Sequence record: PP724615.1
Strand: one strand, 5' to 3'
DNA from: Escherichia phage HK6
DNA length: 64,000 nucleotides
Shown piece by piece: positions 3,870 to 60,586 of this stretch (the first letter of the stretch is position 1; each line of letters opens with the position of its first letter). The position numbers and the translations under genes are program-made. The notes below the pieces were generated by a model that saw nothing but the letters and a program-made list of their open reading frames with translations, had not been told where the DNA came from and made no database searches.

Positions 3870-3890
3870 GAGAATTTTTCAATTTATTTA

Positions 3891-4367
3891 TCACATCTCA
3901 GCCATTTCAGCTTCAGTAATAACTGTATTACATAAGGCATCTACAGCTTCATTACCACTAATACCAGAATGTCCTTTAACCTTAATAAAGGTAGGGTTAG
4001 TATTATGAAAGTTGATATACTGCTGTGTTAATTTAAATGCTTCCTGCCAAAGTTCTAGATTAAGAGGAACTTCACCATCTGCTTTCTTCCAGCCTTTCCT
4101 TTGCCAAGAAAACATCCAACTTTCCATGCCATTTTTGCAATAAGCAGAGTCAGTATAGATAGCAATTGGTCTATTATCTTTTTTAACAGACCAACGTAGA
4201 GCTTCTACGATAGCTGTGAGTTCCATCTCATTATTTGTAGTTTTAGGATTATAACCAGATTTAGAACCTAAACGATCGTAGTTATCATCATAGACAATAA
4301 AACCCCAAGCACCTGGACCTGGGTTAGACTTACAAGCACCATCTGTGTAAATGTGGAAAACCGACAT
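3891..4367 (-). CDS. rnh: RNase H (RNase HI type), 158 aa from ATG 4367
   Basis: YTDGACKSNPGPGAWG, NNEMEL, YTDS, KGHSG..GNE.VD motifs; ATG 4367 overlaps upstream stop (TAATG) and follows GGGAGG; the track start 4379 is a TTG inside the RBS. Confidence 0.85.
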   Translation of the reverse strand: MSVFHIYTDGACKSNPGPGAWGFIVYDDNYDRLGSKSGYNPKTTNNEMELTAIVEALRWSVKKDNRPIAIYTDSAYCKNGMESWMFSWQRKGWKKADGEVPLNLELWQEAFKLTQQYINFHNTNPTFIKVKGHSGISGNEAVDALCNTVITEAEMAEM

Positions 4368-15400: not shown

Positions 15401-15829
15401 ATGTTCAATAATGTATTCTCTAAAGAAGCTAACCCAATTTTGGTTAACTTTTGGCGTACTCTCCCAGCTAGCCTGTATAATGAGGCTATTAACTCCTTGA
15501 AAATATGGTGTGAGAATAATGAAATCTCCTTTGCTTTTAAAGATGATATTGATGAGGCCCCCTGTATTGGTTTAATTGTTCAGGTAGAGGAGGGTCTTGA
15601 GGAGATTGTCGGCTGGAAAGAGTTAGATGAAATAGGCTTAGTTTTTGCGTTAAACTATAAGCTGTTTATGCCTGCTAAGCATCGCCTCGTTGTTAACTAT
15701 AAAACTAGTGAATCTCCTGGTTTTCAAGTTAATGAACGTTACGGTTGGTCTTACTTACCGGAAGAAGTAAATGATGGTATCCAAAAACTTCGCCGTTTTG
15801 GTTATCAAATTCCGGGTTTAACTGCTTAA
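15401..15829 (+). CDS. hypothetical protein, 142 aa, paralogue of next gene
   Basis: AAGGTG RBS; shares PCIG..W.EL...GL..ALN..F.P...G(Y/I).(I/V)PGL pattern with 15839..16231. Confidence 0.6.
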   Translation: MFNNVFSKEANPILVNFWRTLPASLYNEAINSLKIWCENNEISFAFKDDIDEAPCIGLIVQVEEGLEEIVGWKELDEIGLVFALNYKLFMPAKHRLVVNYKTSESPGFQVNERYGWSYLPEEVNDGIQKLRRFGYQIPGLTA

Positions 15830-15838
15830 GGAGGAAGA

Positions 15839-16231
15839 ATGGAACAAGTATATTGGCGTCAGATTGACCCTAGTTTGGTGAAGCGTGCGGAAAAGCTGCT
15901 ACAACGTTGGTTAGGGGTAAGGCAAGCCTCCTTCACTTTTCCGGAGCAGCAAACGGATGATCCCTGCATTGGCGTTTTCCTGTCTGGATATGCCGGGGAA
16001 TGGGAGATGGACTGGAATGAATTGTCAGCTATGGGTTTAATTGTTGCCCTAAACTTCTCTATATTCCATCCACGTGGTTTGGCCATATGTCGCGTGCCTG
16101 ATGACGGTTGTTCGCCCCATCTTTTACAGGTGGAAAATGATATTTGGGAGTACACTCCAGATATTCTCGCAGAAGCTAAAGAACAATTAAATCGTGTTGG
16201 GATTTATGTTCCGGGATTAAATGATGAATAA
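15839..16231 (+). CDS. hypothetical protein, 130 aa, paralogue of previous gene
   Basis: AAGGAGGAAG RBS; see paralogue. Confidence 0.6.
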   Translation: MEQVYWRQIDPSLVKRAEKLLQRWLGVRQASFTFPEQQTDDPCIGVFLSGYAGEWEMDWNELSAMGLIVALNFSIFHPRGLAICRVPDDGCSPHLLQVENDIWEYTPDILAEAKEQLNRVGIYVPGLNDE

Positions 16232-16418
16232 GGAATTTTGGAAAATAAAAGGGAAGATTTCTAAGTGGAATACTACAGGGAAAATTAGTAAGTCTCTAGA
16301 GATAGAGATAGCTAGAATGTTTACTGATCCTAATTTTGATATAGAAAAACTAAGCAAAGTAGATGCTAAAAAAGTAGATAAGTATATAGAAGAGATTAGA
16401 AGTATTTTAAGTGTCTAA
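16221..16418 (+). CDS. hypothetical lysine-rich protein, 65 aa
   Basis: last ORF of operon, followed by terminator 16426..16451. Confidence 0.45.
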   Translation: MMNKEFWKIKGKISKWNTTGKISKSLEIEIARMFTDPNFDIEKLSKVDAKKVDKYIEEIRSILSV

Positions 16419-16425
16419 TCCACGT

Positions 16426-16451
16426 AACCGAGTCATTTTGGCTCGGTTTTA
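16426..16451 (+). terminator. terminator closing the Sir2/HAD operon
   Basis: AACCGAG/CTCGGTT stem then TTTTA. Confidence 0.75.
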
Positions 16452-16494
16452 TCCGTACTCAAGACCAATGATAGCACCATCCGGAAAATTTTAC

Positions 16495-16523
16495 TTGCAG
16501 GATGCCCAAAATCTTGATATAAT
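16495..16523 (+). promoter_or_regulatory. sigma70 promoter TTGCAG-17-TATAAT (extended TG)
   Basis: -35 16495..16500, -10 16518..16523. Confidence 0.7.
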
Positions 16524-16555
16524 ATTTATATTGAATTGAGAGACATTAGTAAAAA

Positions 16556-16585
16556 TTGATTTTGCTAATTTTTCTTGTTTACAAT
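16556..16585 (+). promoter_or_regulatory. sigma70-like promoter TTGATT-18-TACAAT
   Basis: -35 16556..16561, -10 16580..16585, A-tract upstream. Confidence 0.5.
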
Positions 16586-17021
16586 CCGCGATACGGAACA
16601 GTTAGGCTGCCCCATTAAGGGTTGTTTTAACTGTTACGTGTTAGTTTTTAAACAAATAGTTAATAGAATACTTAGCGATCTACATCCCGTAGGAACCCTG
16701 GTAAGGCCTCGAAGCAACCTAGTGTGAGGTGGTTGTGAAGTGAGACGGGAAGAGTGAAAAACTCTGAGAAGTGATGACGTAAGGTATACTGCATCTAGTA
16801 TGAGCTAGTACATGAAGCATTAGGTGAGCAAATCTGGCTTAGCGGCCATCCTCAAGGATTTGTGCGGTATAGTGAAGCGGCAGTGTAGCGTGAAAGGGGA
16901 AGTTGCCACCCCCCTTCAGTATTTGCGATTAATTGTTGAGAAATTGACAGTAACAGTTGTTCTATTCTTTCTGAATAGTCCTAAAGAAAACTTATTTCAT
17001 TTCCAACACAGGAGTATTGTT
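16586..17021 (+). other. long untranslated, locally structured, G-rich region (candidate ncRNA / regulatory leader / origin)
   Basis: stops in all three forward frames up to 16823, no reverse ORF, about 50% G+C in 16681..16920 by my count, multiple hairpins. Confidence 0.4.
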
Positions 17022-19811
17022 GTGTTCTCAATCCTACAAGGTCATGCAGGATTTCATCGCGACTTAGCCACAGGCATTTGGCGAGAAGTTAAAGCAGAAG
17101 ACTATCTTTTTGCTAAAAGATTTTCCTCAAAGCATCCTGAAGGTAAACCAGCTTCAATGCCCTTCAAGTTTGATGTAATTGATGAAGTTGATCCTCAAAC
17201 CCTAGTAGAAATGCTCCCTCTTATGAGACGTTTAACGTCTGACCCTCATATCGTTGCGGTACGAGGTCGATGTCTTGCACCCAAAAATAACGTGCGGCGT
17301 AAGAAGGGCAACTTTAATGTATCTAACCCAAGTCATATAATTGCATTGGACGTGGATGGTATTGTAGATACAGGTGGTTGTAACAAGTTTGATCTTGTTG
17401 GCATGGCTCGACATATTATTAGGATGTTAAATAGTATTAGTGAGGATATGTTTCCTCTTGATGCAGGGTTTATTGCTCATGCATCGTCTTCGGCTGGGCT
17501 AAAACCAGGTATCCGAATGCACTTAATACTAGAATCTAATGTTAAAGTAACTCAGGGTCAAATCAAATTCTTATTTACATCTATCAACGAAAGTAGTAGA
17601 CAAAAGTATGGCTTTGATATTGCCGACTTAGCTTATTACTCTTCCGTACAGCTCCATTATTTTGCAGATCCGTTATTTACCGATGGTATAGTAGATCCGT
17701 TTAAAGCGGAGGGTGCCTCACGTCTGGTATTTGTTAAGGGTTCTAAAGTAAATTTACCTAATAATCTGGTTGACTATGAAACAACTAGAGGTGAGTTTAA
17801 AGAGGAGTTCTACTCTTTACTCGACCAAATTAAGGGTAAAAAAGCTGCCTCTGATAAAGTAGAGGAAACTATCAGCGAACTAGAAGAAGCTGAGGATGGA
17901 GTGTACCTACGTATTATACCTAAACTCTATCATAGAGCTTTGGAGGATGGTGTTGATTTTGCATGGCTAGAAAAAGAAATCCGTCCAGCCTTATCAGAAT
18001 ATATTGCAACTAAAGATAATAGTCGCAATATTCAAGATTACTTTAATAACGGTCGTAAGCAGGCTCTAAAAGCATTTGTTAATAATTCTAAACGTGATAT
18101 ACCTGATGTTTTAAAAGGTATTCCACTTAAAAAGCTAGAAACTAACTCTCTAGAAACTGATAACTTCTTGAAATTAAATACTGTACCACCAGAAGGTTAT
18201 ATGACTTTTGTAAAAGCAAGTCTAGGTACAGGTAAAACTACGGCGGTTGTGCGTTGGTTAGATTCAGGAGTTATTAAAGGTAATTTCTTAGCAATTACCA
18301 ATACTCGAGCACTGGTATCTTCAAATGCTAAGAAATTTAGTGCAGGACAATATGATAAGTCTGTAGATATGCTTAATTTTAAGCGTGGCGCTATTGACCG
18401 TATGTCCACAACTATACATTCTTTGCATAAGTTCAAGAGTTTTATTGGTCAAATTGATGCAATCTTTATCGATGAATGTGATGCTGTAATGAATGACCTA
18501 TTATTCGCCCCGGTTGTTAAACAACGTCGTGAATGTATTCAGGTTCTTCGGGATATTCTTGCAACTGCAAAAATCATTATATTATCTGATGGGGATATTA
18601 GTGCAGAAACAATTGAAGCATACGGTTCTTTGATTGAGTTTGATAAACCAGTAGCATTTTATAATCATCACCGTAAGATGCTGTCAAAAGCTCATGCTTA
18701 TGAGTTCCCTGACGAATCCAGTATTTGGGTTGCACTTCAGACTTCTCTAGAGATGGGTGAGAAATCTATCCTAGTATCTGACTGTGGTCCAGATGAACTG
18801 AATGAGAAGGGCATGGCGTTGCGTCGTAATACGGGTGCGTTAGTTAAGGAAATCCACTCAAACTCTACGTCTGATGTAGATATTCGACGTATTCTGGATT
18901 ACACAACTAATGAGTTAATTGACCAACAAATTGATTGCTTATTATGTAGCCCATCCGTAACGAGCGGTGTTGACTTTAACTATTTTGATAACGTATTCGT
19001 TATTACTAGGACCAGTAACCAAGCGCCAAACATGCGTTTTCAAGCAATCAGGCGCGACCGTGGCGCTCAGAACATTTATTATTTTATTGATAAATCTACG
19101 AGTGGATTCTCCGCAGGTTCTGAGCAATATAACATTGACGAGGGTTGGCTGGAGTTAGCACAGCAATTATACGCACGTCGCAGAGAGCTGGAATCTAGGA
19201 ACTATACTAGTACTTTACGTTACTATTTGCTTGATCAGGGTGCAACTATTGATATTTTCAGTGAAAGCTGGGGAACTATCGAAGGTGCGGGGAAAGAATA
19301 TACAGAAGAGCGAATCAAAGCCATTTTGTATTCAACCCCTGATTATTGTGCTCCACGCCATGCAGATGCGTATGAAGCTAAACTACTTCTTGTACGCTAT
19401 TATCATCTTGAGTCTATTAAAGATGTAACAGTTGAGCATGTTGAACAATATATCAAGGATAAACCGAATGATCGAGCTGCATTCTTCCATAAGATGCACG
19501 AGATGTTCTGGGAAGATATTAAGAAGTGTTCAAATGTCACTATCAAACCATTCATAGAAGCTCTGAAAGGTAAGAAGAAAGATTTCTTCCTTAAAACAGG
19601 TCAGAGTGCTAACCCAAAATATGCAAGAATGTATCTTGGTATGATGGGTATTGGTAAGGATATGAACACGGAGAATATTGTAGACTGGTACAGAACCTAT
19701 TGTAAAATCGAGTGTATGCCAATCCCATATAAGTTTATGACTGATGAGGAGAAACATATGCATGATGAAGCAATGGCAGAGCTAGGTGCTAGAAATGACA
19801 GTGAAGAATAA
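17022..19811 (+). CDS. replication initiator-type helicase (T5 'replication origin binding protein' position), 929 aa from GTG 17022
   Basis: Walker A SLGTGKTT (18225..18239), DExD-like FIDECD, C-terminal helicase motifs; AGGAG 7 nt before GTG 17022. Confidence 0.8.
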   Translation: MFSILQGHAGFHRDLATGIWREVKAEDYLFAKRFSSKHPEGKPASMPFKFDVIDEVDPQTLVEMLPLMRRLTSDPHIVAVRGRCLAPKNNVRRKKGNFNVSNPSHIIALDVDGIVDTGGCNKFDLVGMARHIIRMLNSISEDMFPLDAGFIAHASSSAGLKPGIRMHLILESNVKVTQGQIKFLFTSINESSRQKYGFDIADLAYYSSVQLHYFADPLFTDGIVDPFKAEGASRLVFVKGSKVNLPNNLVDYETTRGEFKEEFYSLLDQIKGKKAASDKVEETISELEEAEDGVYLRIIPKLYHRALEDGVDFAWLEKEIRPALSEYIATKDNSRNIQDYFNNGRKQALKAFVNNSKRDIPDVLKGIPLKKLETNSLETDNFLKLNTVPPEGYMTFVKASLGTGKTTAVVRWLDSGVIKGNFLAITNTRALVSSNAKKFSAGQYDKSVDMLNFKRGAIDRMSTTIHSLHKFKSFIGQIDAIFIDECDAVMNDLLFAPVVKQRRECIQVLRDILATAKIIILSDGDISAETIEAYGSLIEFDKPVAFYNHHRKMLSKAHAYEFPDESSIWVALQTSLEMGEKSILVSDCGPDELNEKGMALRRNTGALVKEIHSNSTSDVDIRRILDYTTNELIDQQIDCLLCSPSVTSGVDFNYFDNVFVITRTSNQAPNMRFQAIRRDRGAQNIYYFIDKSTSGFSAGSEQYNIDEGWLELAQQLYARRRELESRNYTSTLRYYLLDQGATIDIFSESWGTIEGAGKEYTEERIKAILYSTPDYCAPRHADAYEAKLLLVRYYHLESIKDVTVEHVEQYIKDKPNDRAAFFHKMHEMFWEDIKKCSNVTIKPFIEALKGKKKDFFLKTGQSANPKYARMYLGMMGIGKDMNTENIVDWYRTYCKIECMPIPYKFMTDEEKHMHDEAMAELGARNDSEE

Positions 19812-58883: not shown

Positions 58884-59372
58884 TTAGCCTCCAACACCAG
58901 GTGCAGTTGGGGTAGCTTTTACTGCCGCAGACTTAGGAGATTCTCCCGCCCCATTAACAGCTACTGCCTGGAAAGTATACTCTTTTGCTTCTAAGGTAGA
59001 AATAGTACCTGTTTTAGAAGACCCAGAATTATAGGTTTTTGGAGTAGTTCCATCAGTATAGTATACTTTATACTGGGTGATTGGTGAGCCGGTATTAGTA
59101 CCATCAGTAATTGTATAAGTTACTGAATTTTCACCTGGAGTTACCTGCAACGTAGGGGCTCCAGGGACAACGTCTACTGGACCAGCCTTACCATAAGCCT
59201 CTACAAATTTCTTCCATACTTTGCGGTTAGTATGCGCAGATGAAAGTCCTAGTTCTCTACGCAGAAAAGCATAGCTAGGAACATATTTATGCGCGGCAAC
59301 CGTAGCAAAGAAGATATGAGATTCTGGCAGTTTTTCACCAAAAATGGTCTTTAGACCACTATAATCAATCAT
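58884..59372 (-). CDS. capsid decoration protein, pb10-like, 162 aa with FN3/Ig-like C-domain
   Basis: position between portal and protease; C-terminal FN3-like PGAPT..YKVYYTDG..FQAVAVNGAGES. Confidence 0.8.
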   Translation of the reverse strand: MIDYSGLKTIFGEKLPESHIFFATVAAHKYVPSYAFLRRELGLSSAHTNRKVWKKFVEAYGKAGPVDVVPGAPTLQVTPGENSVTYTITDGTNTGSPITQYKVYYTDGTTPKTYNSGSSKTGTISTLEAKEYTFQAVAVNGAGESPKSAAVKATPTAPGVGG

Positions 59373-60586
59373 TCTTTATCTCCCTCGGTGGAACCTTGAG
59401 GTCTACCACCTTCTTGACCGGATACACCTGTTGCAGAACCAGCAACGTTGGCAGGAATACGAATCTTATTCATCTGCTCATCATCTAAAGGTTCAAGGTT
59501 TAGCTCTACACGAGCTTCGTTACCAGTCATAATACCATTATTAACCAATGAGGTTAAATGTTTAGCCTCAGCTTCTTTATCTGGTGTTAATGCAGCTACT
59601 TCCTTAGTATTAGGAGTAATCTTATAACCAAAAAAGAAAGTAAGAGAACTAGTCAGTTTGTTCAGCATAGGGATGATAGTCATGTAATAGAACAGTTCGA
59701 TATTTGGTCGAATGTTCGCATTATTACCACCATCAAGTAGCACCTGCGGAACACCAAAGGCTAGACAGATAGATTTATTAAATCCTTCTATGTCTTCCTT
59801 AAAGTCTAGATCTTTAAAAGAGGATATTTGGGAGTACGGTTTAGCTTTCATACCACCATCTAGAATCAGGACAGAGGACTGACCAGTACTAGGATTATAA
59901 TCTAGTTGTAATTCTTCTTGTTTACGCTCACGCAATTTCTTGTTCAGGATTTCATCCGTCTCAAGAATAAGACCAATCACGGTTCCGTTATCTAGGAACT
60001 TCTCTTTAAAGTTAAGCATCTTAGAACGCTTCTCAAGAGAATCAATAACAGTAGCAACACGAGATTGTCCAGAAATTTGAGAATTTGTGCCACACACGTA
60101 ACTGTTATCCTTTATAAAGATAATCTCATCTACGCGATAGTCTATCTGATTATTAAATATAAATTTTTTGATAAACTTATTGGCATCTGCCTCTACTTGC
60201 ATTAGTGCAGCAGGGACATGGTAAAGTGCTGTGCCATCCCAATAGATGTATGCACAACCTTCAAAAAGTAGGTCAGTGACTACAAGTCTACGGAATGTGC
60301 TTATATCCATGAATGGATTAGGTCGTACATTTAAGAGAGTGTCTAGAGTCTTTGTCTTGATGCCATTGGCATACGTGACAATATTATATTTATCTCCGAC
60401 AGTATAAGAACACTCCGCCGCACTATCTATAACCATATTAGCAGTTCTATTGAGAATCTCAATTTTACTGTAGGCTTGTCCAGTGGTAAAAGGCTTACGG
60501 TTAGTGCGATGACTAACTGGTTCCATGTCTCTTATAATACGTTGACCCGGATTTAGCTTTTCAGTAATCCAGCTTTTAAAACCCAT
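59369..60586 (-). CDS. portal protein, pb7-like, 405 aa
   Basis: size, position downstream of terminase. Confidence 0.9.
   Translation of the reverse strand: MGFKSWITEKLNPGQRIIRDMEPVSHRTNRKPFTTGQAYSKIEILNRTANMVIDSAAECSYTVGDKYNIVTYANGIKTKTLDTLLNVRPNPFMDISTFRRLVVTDLLFEGCAYIYWDGTALYHVPAALMQVEADANKFIKKFIFNNQIDYRVDEIIFIKDNSYVCGTNSQISGQSRVATVIDSLEKRSKMLNFKEKFLDNGTVIGLILETDEILNKKLRERKQEELQLDYNPSTGQSSVLILDGGMKAKPYSQISSFKDLDFKEDIEGFNKSICLAFGVPQVLLDGGNNANIRPNIELFYYMTIIPMLNKLTSSLTFFFGYKITPNTKEVAALTPDKEAEAKHLTSLVNNGIMTGNEARVELNLEPLDDEQMNKIRIPANVAGSATGVSGQEGGRPQGSTEGDKE

Follow-up and report, generated by a model that had tools for sequence, protein, structure and literature searches.

The 603-nucleotide (nt) gap at positions 16419–17021 of the window, a 64,000-nt stretch of Escherichia phage HK6 (PP724615.1) that was analysed as a whole, very probably encodes on its plus strand a large folded RNA of several domains, about 330 nt long, whose structure has been selected. 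Judged by annotated relatives, the gap is situated between the terminator of T5.107 and the D2/T5.108 gene of a Tequintavirus. The folded element makes up the first 430–490 nt of the predicted D2 transcript, and in it a G-rich, two-domain core of about 240 nt is enclosed by a long helix, helix P1. The gap is also the longest stretch of the window without an open reading frame (ORF) of at least 60 amino acids (aa) on either strand; next in length come one of 412 nt, at the edge of the window, and an internal one of 343 nt. The last forward stop codons lie at 16972, 16982 and 16821 in the three frames, and no reverse ORF reaches 60 aa. The original prediction, made from the sequence of the window, had called this the largest non-coding gap, with stops in all forward frames, and had offered a noncoding RNA (ncRNA), a regulatory leader or an origin as explanations. 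Most of its description of the gap was borne out by measurement, and the ncRNA and leader options are now strongly supported by compensatory changes, by a plus-strand stability that depends on G.U pairs and by a start just after conserved promoters. The closing helix of about 40 base pairs (bp) and the existence of two core alleles, type A in the window and type B in T5, go beyond what had been predicted. The parts of the RNA are as follows.

16628–16676, plus strand: 5' strand of helix P1, long and AU-rich, pairing with 16918–59.
16678–16779, plus strand: 5' domain, a three-way junction closed by helix Ha (16685–90 with 16745–50).
16780–16824, plus strand: variable middle hairpin region linking both domains, from folding prediction only.
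16825–16921, plus strand: 3' domain, with hairpin Hd, helix Hm (16863–66 with 16884–87), the motif CAGUGUAG and hairpin He (16894–99 with 16911–16).
16918–16959, plus strand: 3' strand of helix P1, pairing with 16628–76.
16962–16978, plus strand: hairpin Hf, CUAUUC-UUUCU-GAAUAG, directly 3' of helix P1 and invariant in types A and B.

Covariation among relatives, which the original prediction had named as a check, was positive in both core domains. Two-sided changes stood above shuffled and slid controls in independent lineages, the pattern by which a conserved structured RNA is recognised. Inside the junction closed by Ha lie hairpin Hb1 and two stacked helices, Hb0 and Hb2 (GCAACC with GGUUGU), and at the 3' end of the domain hairpin Hc (16751–55 with 16761–65) is followed by the conserved GAGAAGUG at 16767–74. 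Among eight sequences from four lineages, 13 of its 25 pairs were changed on both sides and 94% of cells were paired (0/500 shuffles; slid controls at most 4). A model of this domain, R1, matched only type A copies, the metagenomic lineage L086, DU_PP_V and My1. Copies in T5 (type B) and in Klebsiella, Proteus, Providencia, Vibrio and Aeromonas phages were not found with it, so the 5' domain is either lineage-specific or too diverged.

In the 3' domain, the outer stem of hairpin Hd (16829–34 with 16857–62) is different in every lineage, and its inner stem (GGC at 16836–38 with GCC at 16845–47) carries an invariant, C-G-closed loop, UUAGCG (16839–44); nothing else in the element is as well conserved as the hairpin with this loop. 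The terminal hairpin of the domain has many compensatory changes. Both sides were changed at 10 of 19 pairs in the training alignment (0/500 shuffles), and at 13 of 19 in a model-fitted alignment of 16 distinct sequences including the T5 type (90.5% of cells paired; 0/500 shuffles), which was fitted to the structure and hence is biased towards it. The corresponding model, R2, recovered T5-type copies from outside its training set at the homologous position (E about 0.006). With filters off, it gave matches of 11–12 bits (E 0.18–0.26) at UUAGCG hairpins of Proteus, Providencia and Aeromonas phages; these matches and the shared hairpin motif only make an extension of the RNA to those phages suggestive. 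Single UUAGCG hairpins were not more stable than flank-shuffled versions, and the evidence for them is therefore comparative. All four stems listed in the original prediction (now Ha, Hc, the outer stem of Hd, and Hf) proved to be real helices, kept by relatives with different sequences. In the middle region, some changes among type A phages preserve pairing.

Some further features of the core concern possible tertiary contacts. The 3' internal loop of Hd (16848–16856 in the window) is pyrimidine-rich, reading AUCCUCAAG here and CUCCUUA in DU_PP_V and My1. It resembles the 16S anti-Shine–Dalgarno sequence, and the L086 version, CUUCUC, is complementary to a conserved GAGAAG. This loop may form a tertiary or anti-Shine–Dalgarno contact. 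The UUAGCG loop, GAGAAGUG, CAGUGUAG and the 5' GGCUGCCCC are candidate partners in a pseudoknot that may form.

Helix P1 closes the element over a long range by roughly 40 bp and is kept in both minimum-free-energy and centroid folds. In the window, stretches of 10 bp and 11 bp are separated by a one-base bulge, and further pairs follow; within the helix lies an exact 9-nt inverted repeat (16629–37 with 16950–58), and its duplex energy is −38.8 kcal/mol, compared with −18.1 ± 3.6 for shuffles. Comparable helices occur in DU_PP_V, My1, T5 and Eps7-like phages. In six of eight lineages (the window, a second type A phage, T5, an Eps7-like phage, DU_PP_V and My1) the helix was significant, with z between −4.5 and −5.9 and 0/200 shuffles, despite unrelated sequences. 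At 16632:16954, type A phages have G-C, most type B phages A-U, and T5 itself G.U, and the single-strand changes in the helix among type A phages are U.G / U-A transitions. A hairpin directly 3' of helix P1 recurs in every lineage with a differing sequence; the counterparts of Hf are CUAUC/GAUAG (Klebsiella), AUACUAU/AUAGUAU (L086) and CUUUCC/GGAAAG (DU_PP_V). The closed element as a whole folds at −98.4 kcal/mol, and its z-score against shuffles, another check named beforehand, was −3.24. The motif AACAGTT is found three times in this part of the window (16593–16604, 16628–16639 and 16950–16958), and its middle copy has two possible partners, the upstream copy (12 nt, 92% complementary) and the downstream one at the foot of helix P1. 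These alternative pairings may amount to a folding switch, present in Tequintavirus only and not in DU_PP_V or My1.

In principle, the structure could belong to DNA instead, either a cruciform or a set of single-strand origin hairpins for D2 to recognise, comparable to the oriS* hairpin that is recognised by UL9. The neighbouring gene does encode a UL9-like protein, long inverted repeats flank the block, and the antisense strand of the closed element (−76.3 kcal/mol) also beats its own shuffles (z = −3.36). However, in all 10 lineages the sense strand gives the more stable fold, by 9–28 kcal/mol, with 13–22 G.U pairs per fold and a G-over-C skew of 0.10–0.26. The pairs change along the path G-C / G.U / A-U and U.G / U-A, which disfavours a purely DNA-level element, and the structure starts right after conserved promoters. 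Because the stability of the sense strand depends on G.U pairs and the promoters just upstream are conserved, we favour RNA over a DNA cruciform and regard the latter as very unlikely. The composition of the block had been estimated before at about 50% G+C with G above C; for 16681–16920 the measured values are 49.6% G+C, 30.8% G and 18.8% C, and the whole window has 39% G+C and no skew.

An absence of function altogether, with the gap as a leftover spacer, a mobile-element remnant or a home for small unannotated protein genes, is the least probable explanation that we considered, and we give it hardly any weight. Three tiny ORFs are annotated here in some records, and both a homing endonuclease gene and a 97-nt element have been inserted nearby. 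Against this, no ORF is common to the lineages: in open segments of at least 30 aa, comparison of the window with L086, DU_PP_V, My1 and Klebsiella phages found no shared 7-mer peptides. The compensatory changes are far above controls, and the element is single-copy and occupies one fixed site across the lineages. In the window, R1 and R2 each gave one significant match, at the gap; the other R1 match (3886–3953, minus strand) had 10.1 bits and E = 2.8. A miniature mobile element was also considered and rejected given the single copy, the fixed site and the co-varying helix arms.

No known RNA family had been recognised in the gap beforehand, and database searches bear this out. Rfam 15 at permissive thresholds (E up to 10) gave for 15800–17600 of the window only sR17, at 17.4 bits against a gathering threshold of 36 (E = 0.41). 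In nine relatives, the Rfam search returned one sub-threshold small RNA match only, over a terminator and promoter. No family came near its gathering threshold, ROOL, GOLLD, HEARO, group I and II introns, 6S, rne5, riboswitches and T-box included. A weak C/D-box snoRNA match and a lambda boxB-like GAAAA hairpin at 16751–65 were not conserved in relatives, and both were treated as chance. ARAGORN found no tRNA or tmRNA in the window, and the RNA was not found described in the literature searched.

To examine how widely the element is distributed, intervals upstream of D2 homologues were gathered from IMG/VR, GenBank phages and metagenomes. Every enterobacterial lineage examined has an ORF-free gap of about 600 nt or longer before the D2 homologue, at identities of the origin-binding protein (OBP) N-terminus down to 61%. 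These lineages were Tequintavirus, Epseptimavirus, Klebsiella phages (L066), Pectobacterium phages DU_PP_V (L068) and My1 (L069), Proteus phage Stubb (L071), Providencia phages (L072, L073) and the metagenomic L086, the one new lineage from the metagenome scan. Farther away, the gap measures 637 nt in Vibrio phage PG07, Aeromonas phage TS3 has about 1.6 kb without annotated genes, and Vibrio phage D254 has a coding sequence (CDS) in place of the gap. A pattern scan of IMG/VR with AGAAGTG-N50-75-CTTAGCGG returned chance and coding-sequence matches; the true copies were only My1 and one type A contig. In all, 535 phage records match the gap region, nearly all of them T5-like, and identity to Salmonella phage Th1 there is 99.8%.

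The distant gaps have features of their own. In Proteus phage Stubb, two perfect 12/12 sigma-70 promoters (705–733 and 1435–1464) bracket a structured noncoding region of about 700 nt, which contains GGGG(U/A)(C/A)CCCGAGC twice, in each case with a CCUUAGC(G/C)G motif after it. In Aeromonas phage TS3 (L078), about 1.3 kb at 280–1560, free of annotated genes, fold at −0.33 kcal/mol per nt, 42 kcal/mol better in sense than in antisense, with a 25-bp long-range helix (about 812–850 with 1440–65) and UUAGCG hairpins at 499 and 743; this region may hold two tandem large RNAs. In the gap of Vibrio phage PG07 (L077), a unit of about 56 nt, GACTATCACTTTGTAGCCTCAATCCTCGGATTGTGTGAGTCAGTTAACTTCTGTCG, occurs twice in direct orientation (about 1230–1400), and this gap looks iteron-like, in contrast to those of the enterobacterial phages.

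The RNA core comes in two alleles that can hardly be aligned with each other, and their boundary is the base of the long helix. Between the window and T5 (L059), identity is 100% over 16500–16640, 26–54% over 16650–16950 and 84% from 16950, compared with 80–95% in the neighbouring genes. Since the type A 5' domain also occurs in L086, DU_PP_V and My1, which are more distant, the alleles appear to be old and to have been exchanged by recombination.

The transcript that would carry the RNA can be outlined from the following features around it.

16426–16451, plus strand: intrinsic terminator, an inverted repeat (16426–35 with 16439–48) followed by TTTTAT, annotated in T5 and Lindwurm.
16495–16523, plus strand: promoter P1, TTGCAG-17-TATAAT, of T5 early type, annotated in T5 (58999–59073) and AKFV33.
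16556–16585, plus strand: promoter P2, TTGATT-18-TACAAT, the sole plus-strand site in the sigma-70 scan, with a predicted start near 16592.
16586–16627, plus strand: conserved 5' leader, GAUACGGAACAGUUAGGCUGCCCCAU..., near-invariant in type A, type B, DU_PP_V, My1 and Klebsiella phages.
17010–17024, plus strand: Shine–Dalgarno AGGAG (17010–14) and GTG start codon (17022–24) of D2, the same start being annotated in Lindwurm, AKFV33 and T5.

The terminator and the GTG start had both been placed at these positions by the original prediction, in agreement with the annotation of relatives. The terminator closes the upstream T5.102–107 operon and marks the 5' boundary of the element; a simple terminator scan did not call it. 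The same scan found no terminator-like site inside 16200–17200, so transcription would read into D2. In T5 the counterparts are a terminator at 58952–76, the annotated promoter at 58999–59073 and a CDS start at 59545, and a long untranslated interval is thus common to T5 and the window.

Promoters P1 and P2 sit 430–490 nt upstream of D2. Promoter P1 has a TTGAGAGA downstream region at 16536–43, with a predicted start near 16530, and is kept in Tequintavirus, Klebsiella, Pectobacterium and metagenome lineages; its site was below the threshold of the sigma-70 scan. That scan found consensus promoters at chance level, 2 against 2.4 expected. Of the three tandem promoters proposed earlier, the one at 16556–85 was recovered by the scan and the one at 16495–523 is annotated in T5 and AKFV33 and conserved, while the third (16641–69) is not conserved and lies inside a helix strand. 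To call the gap promoter-dense was therefore an overstatement, with one promoter conserved everywhere and the second present in most phages but split in some by a 97-nt insertion. This insertion, flanked by TTTTTCTT direct repeats, separates the −35 from the −10 of promoter P2 in three phages (L009, L038 and L029), at about 1440–1540 of L009 and between 16577 and 16578 in window terms, and P2 is thus dispensable in some relatives. It occurs with either RNA allele, folds into a hairpin of −20 kcal/mol and may be a small mobile insert. The 5' leader itself forms a small hairpin (CAG at 16599–601, loop UUAGG, CUG at 16607–09), which L086 has as CGG...CCG, a change on both sides.

Our favoured reading, which we hold tentatively and at somewhat less than even confidence, mechanism included, is that the element acts mainly as a cis-acting processing or control leader of the D2 mRNA. 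Host RNA polymerase could start at promoter P1, and at P2 where it is intact, and the 5' part of the resulting D2 transcript would fold into the helix-closed element. Host RNase III would then cut the AU-rich helix P1; the folded core would come free, and the remaining D2 mRNA would begin with the conserved hairpin Hf (16962–78). This new 5' end would set the stability and translation of the initiator message, and the conserved loops would be a probable binding site, possibly for D2 itself as feedback. We rank the cis-acting leader first for three reasons. Helix P1 is in each lineage a near-continuous AU-rich duplex of about 20 bp and so a typical RNase III substrate, such processing is a known mode, and strict synteny with D2, kept despite wide divergence, is what a cis element usually shows. 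Duplex of this length, about 20 bp or more of near-continuous double-stranded RNA within a leader, is what RNase III-processed leaders have. A riboswitch or attenuator leader was considered and dropped, given that 16200–17200 has no terminator-like site and there is no conserved Shine–Dalgarno sequestor.

Several observations weigh against the cis-acting leader. Predicted pairing partners of the Shine–Dalgarno and start region differ between lineages, with no conserved sequestor, and the 5' end pairs with the start codon no better than shuffled sequences do. Known translational operators are far smaller than this two-domain core of about 240 nt, and two core alleles have no obvious reason under simple cis control. 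The transcript ends, the cleavage and any binding of D2 are predictions. In addition, Stubb has a 12/12 consensus promoter between the structured region and D2, and TS3 has a hairpin followed by U6 near 1480–1527, before D2, as read by eye. For these two phages, a separate RNA gene fits better than a leader.

Such a separate gene would make an independent ncRNA acting in trans, in which the core closed by helix P1 is released for a job unrelated to D2 (host takeover, sequestration of a host protein or counter-defence) and merely shares the D2 promoter. We consider this unlikely, and place it after the origin-linked RNA discussed below. The ends of the RNA meet in a long stem, a feature shared with many stable ncRNAs; the invariance of the loop motif hints at a binding partner; and fast, allele-like divergence of the core fits an arms race. 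Consensus promoters on both sides of the RNA region in Stubb and the hairpin–U6 after it in TS3 point the same way. However, strict long-range synteny with D2 is typical of cis elements, Tequintavirus has no terminator here, and no target can be named.

The position of the gap raises instead the possibility of a role at the replication origin, where the transcript from promoters P1 and P2 would be a folded primer or R-loop former, or a cofactor of the D2 helicase, at the T5 primary origin, and the core alleles would be replication-specificity groups. This is also unlikely in our judgement, though it ranks next after the cis-acting leader. A passage in 10.1101/866236, citing Bourguignon 1976, places mapped T5 origins near the centre of the DNA, and the T5 gap, at 58.9–59.5 kb of 121.75 kb (48.5%), is close to that centre. 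The gap adjoins D2, a UL9-like bipolar SF2 helicase that has been proposed as the T5 initiator (PMC3632103), and the RNA remains beside the D2 gene across the family. Strong promoters lead into a transcript with more G than C, with AT-rich DNA on both flanks, and the cassette-like alleles resemble the specificity divergence of plasmid primer RNAs. As in ColE1 priming, a promoter lies several hundred nt upstream and the transcript is folded and G-rich.

Other observations speak against an origin-linked RNA. The gap has no iterons or repeated boxes, its sole direct repeat being one 10-nt pair, and a scan found no minus-strand promoter-like site inside it that could serve for an antisense RNA. 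The GC-skew turn is about 5 kb away and tracks gene orientation, with none at the gap; the skew-based origin call in phage phiLLS (PMC5519627) reflects the same turn. The AT-rich flanks of the core are accounted for by RNA, because both are strands of helix P1. For the same reason, and for want of three or more direct repeats, an iteron-type origin was rejected. A more specific proposal, in which D2 recognises a T5 primary-origin RNA by the UUAGCG hairpin and other loops or uses it as a primer or R-loop, and the alleles are specificity types that would block cross-talk between co-infecting phages, is in our view less probable again than either the trans-acting or the broader origin-linked explanation.

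Comparison with known systems suggests that this RNA family, though undescribed, is familiar in its general type: a large structured leader or ncRNA. The RNase III-processed leaders (E. coli pnp and rnc, lambda N, T7 early mRNA and the rRNA stalks) share with it a long imperfect duplex in the 5' leader that brackets a folded RNA, a near-continuous helix of about 20 bp, found here in each lineage, and a hairpin at the new mRNA 5' end. Compared with the pnp, rnc and T7 sites, the core here is much larger and more ornate and has conserved motifs of its own, and cleavage is predicted. ColE1 RNA II, T7 phi1.1A/B and T4 oriF/oriG resemble it in having one or more strong promoters and a G-rich, folded, noncoding transcript of several hundred nt beside replication genes. 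As with ColE1 RNA II and transcription-primed origins, its position agrees with the mapped origin, and its sequence diverges while the fold is kept. In contrast to ColE1 RNA II, no antisense promoter of the RNA I type was found here, a long stem closes the RNA, and a dedicated initiator helicase is encoded downstream.

Other phage RNAs offer more distant parallels. ROOL and GOLLD are also large, multi-helix, phage-borne RNAs whose biochemical function is unknown, but the RNA here is smaller at about 330 nt, is fixed upstream of one gene rather than beside tRNA genes, and has no Rfam match. The phi29 pRNA, also made from an early promoter, likewise keeps its structure while its sequence is nearly unalignable; it differs in size, fold and genome position, and nothing ties the RNA here to packaging. 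The rne 5' untranslated region (UTR) and the operators of T4 genes 43 and 32 are conserved structured 5' UTRs before a nucleic-acid-binding enzyme, with loops that could bind the product. There is no rne5 match here, the RNA is much larger than the T4 operators, and binding by D2 is hypothetical. The RNA is unusual for the great length of its closing helix, for domains that are modular and lineage-specific, for its invariant hexaloop, and for having two cassette-like alleles between identical flanks.

The genes on either side were also annotated. The D2 gene (17022–19811) encodes a "replication origin binding protein", named D2 in AY692264, with a Pfam Herpes_ori_bp match at aa 394–533 and matches to solved UL9-type OBP chains in the PDB. 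Its N-terminal 390 aa (17022–18191 in the window) have no Pfam family or solved-structure match. By eye, this region has DxD-like (ALDVDG) and SxGxxH-like (SSSAGLKPGIRMHL) motifs reminiscent of AEP primase-polymerases; the idea of an AEP/primase-like domain was dropped, as Pfam has nothing there and PHROGs gives only "replication origin binding". A single-sequence AlphaFold model of the N-terminal domain was unusable (pLDDT 34).

Upstream, T5.107 is a DUF7415 (Pfam) protein. Between its homologue and the terminator, the window has a 65-aa ORF (16221–16418) for which a Pfam search found no family. T5 lacks it, hence a 190-nt alignment gap; the copy in phage L010 has 95% identity, and those in L008, L013 and L038 have 44–48%. 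In AKFV33 (L002) and similar phages, a free-standing homing endonuclease gene (2016–2468 in AKFV33) lies between T5.107 and the promoter. The T5.107-to-promoter interval is an insertion hotspot, and the insertions end before the RNA.

T5 is a classical model phage. To our knowledge, its replication origin has never been located in sequence, and we know of no structured RNA, besides tRNAs and small stable RNAs, that has been tied to its replication genes. The analysis presented here gives coordinates, helices and motifs for a family of RNAs, each about 330 nt long, which is found neither in Rfam nor in the literature searched and is carried by hundreds of sequenced Tequintavirus, Epseptimavirus, Klebsiella and Pectobacterium phages. 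Modular exchange of an RNA domain is rarely seen in nature, and the cassette-like alleles between identical flanks are one such case. T5-like phages are widely used for biocontrol and phage therapy, and consequently a cis element in front of D2, if essential, would be relevant to engineering them.

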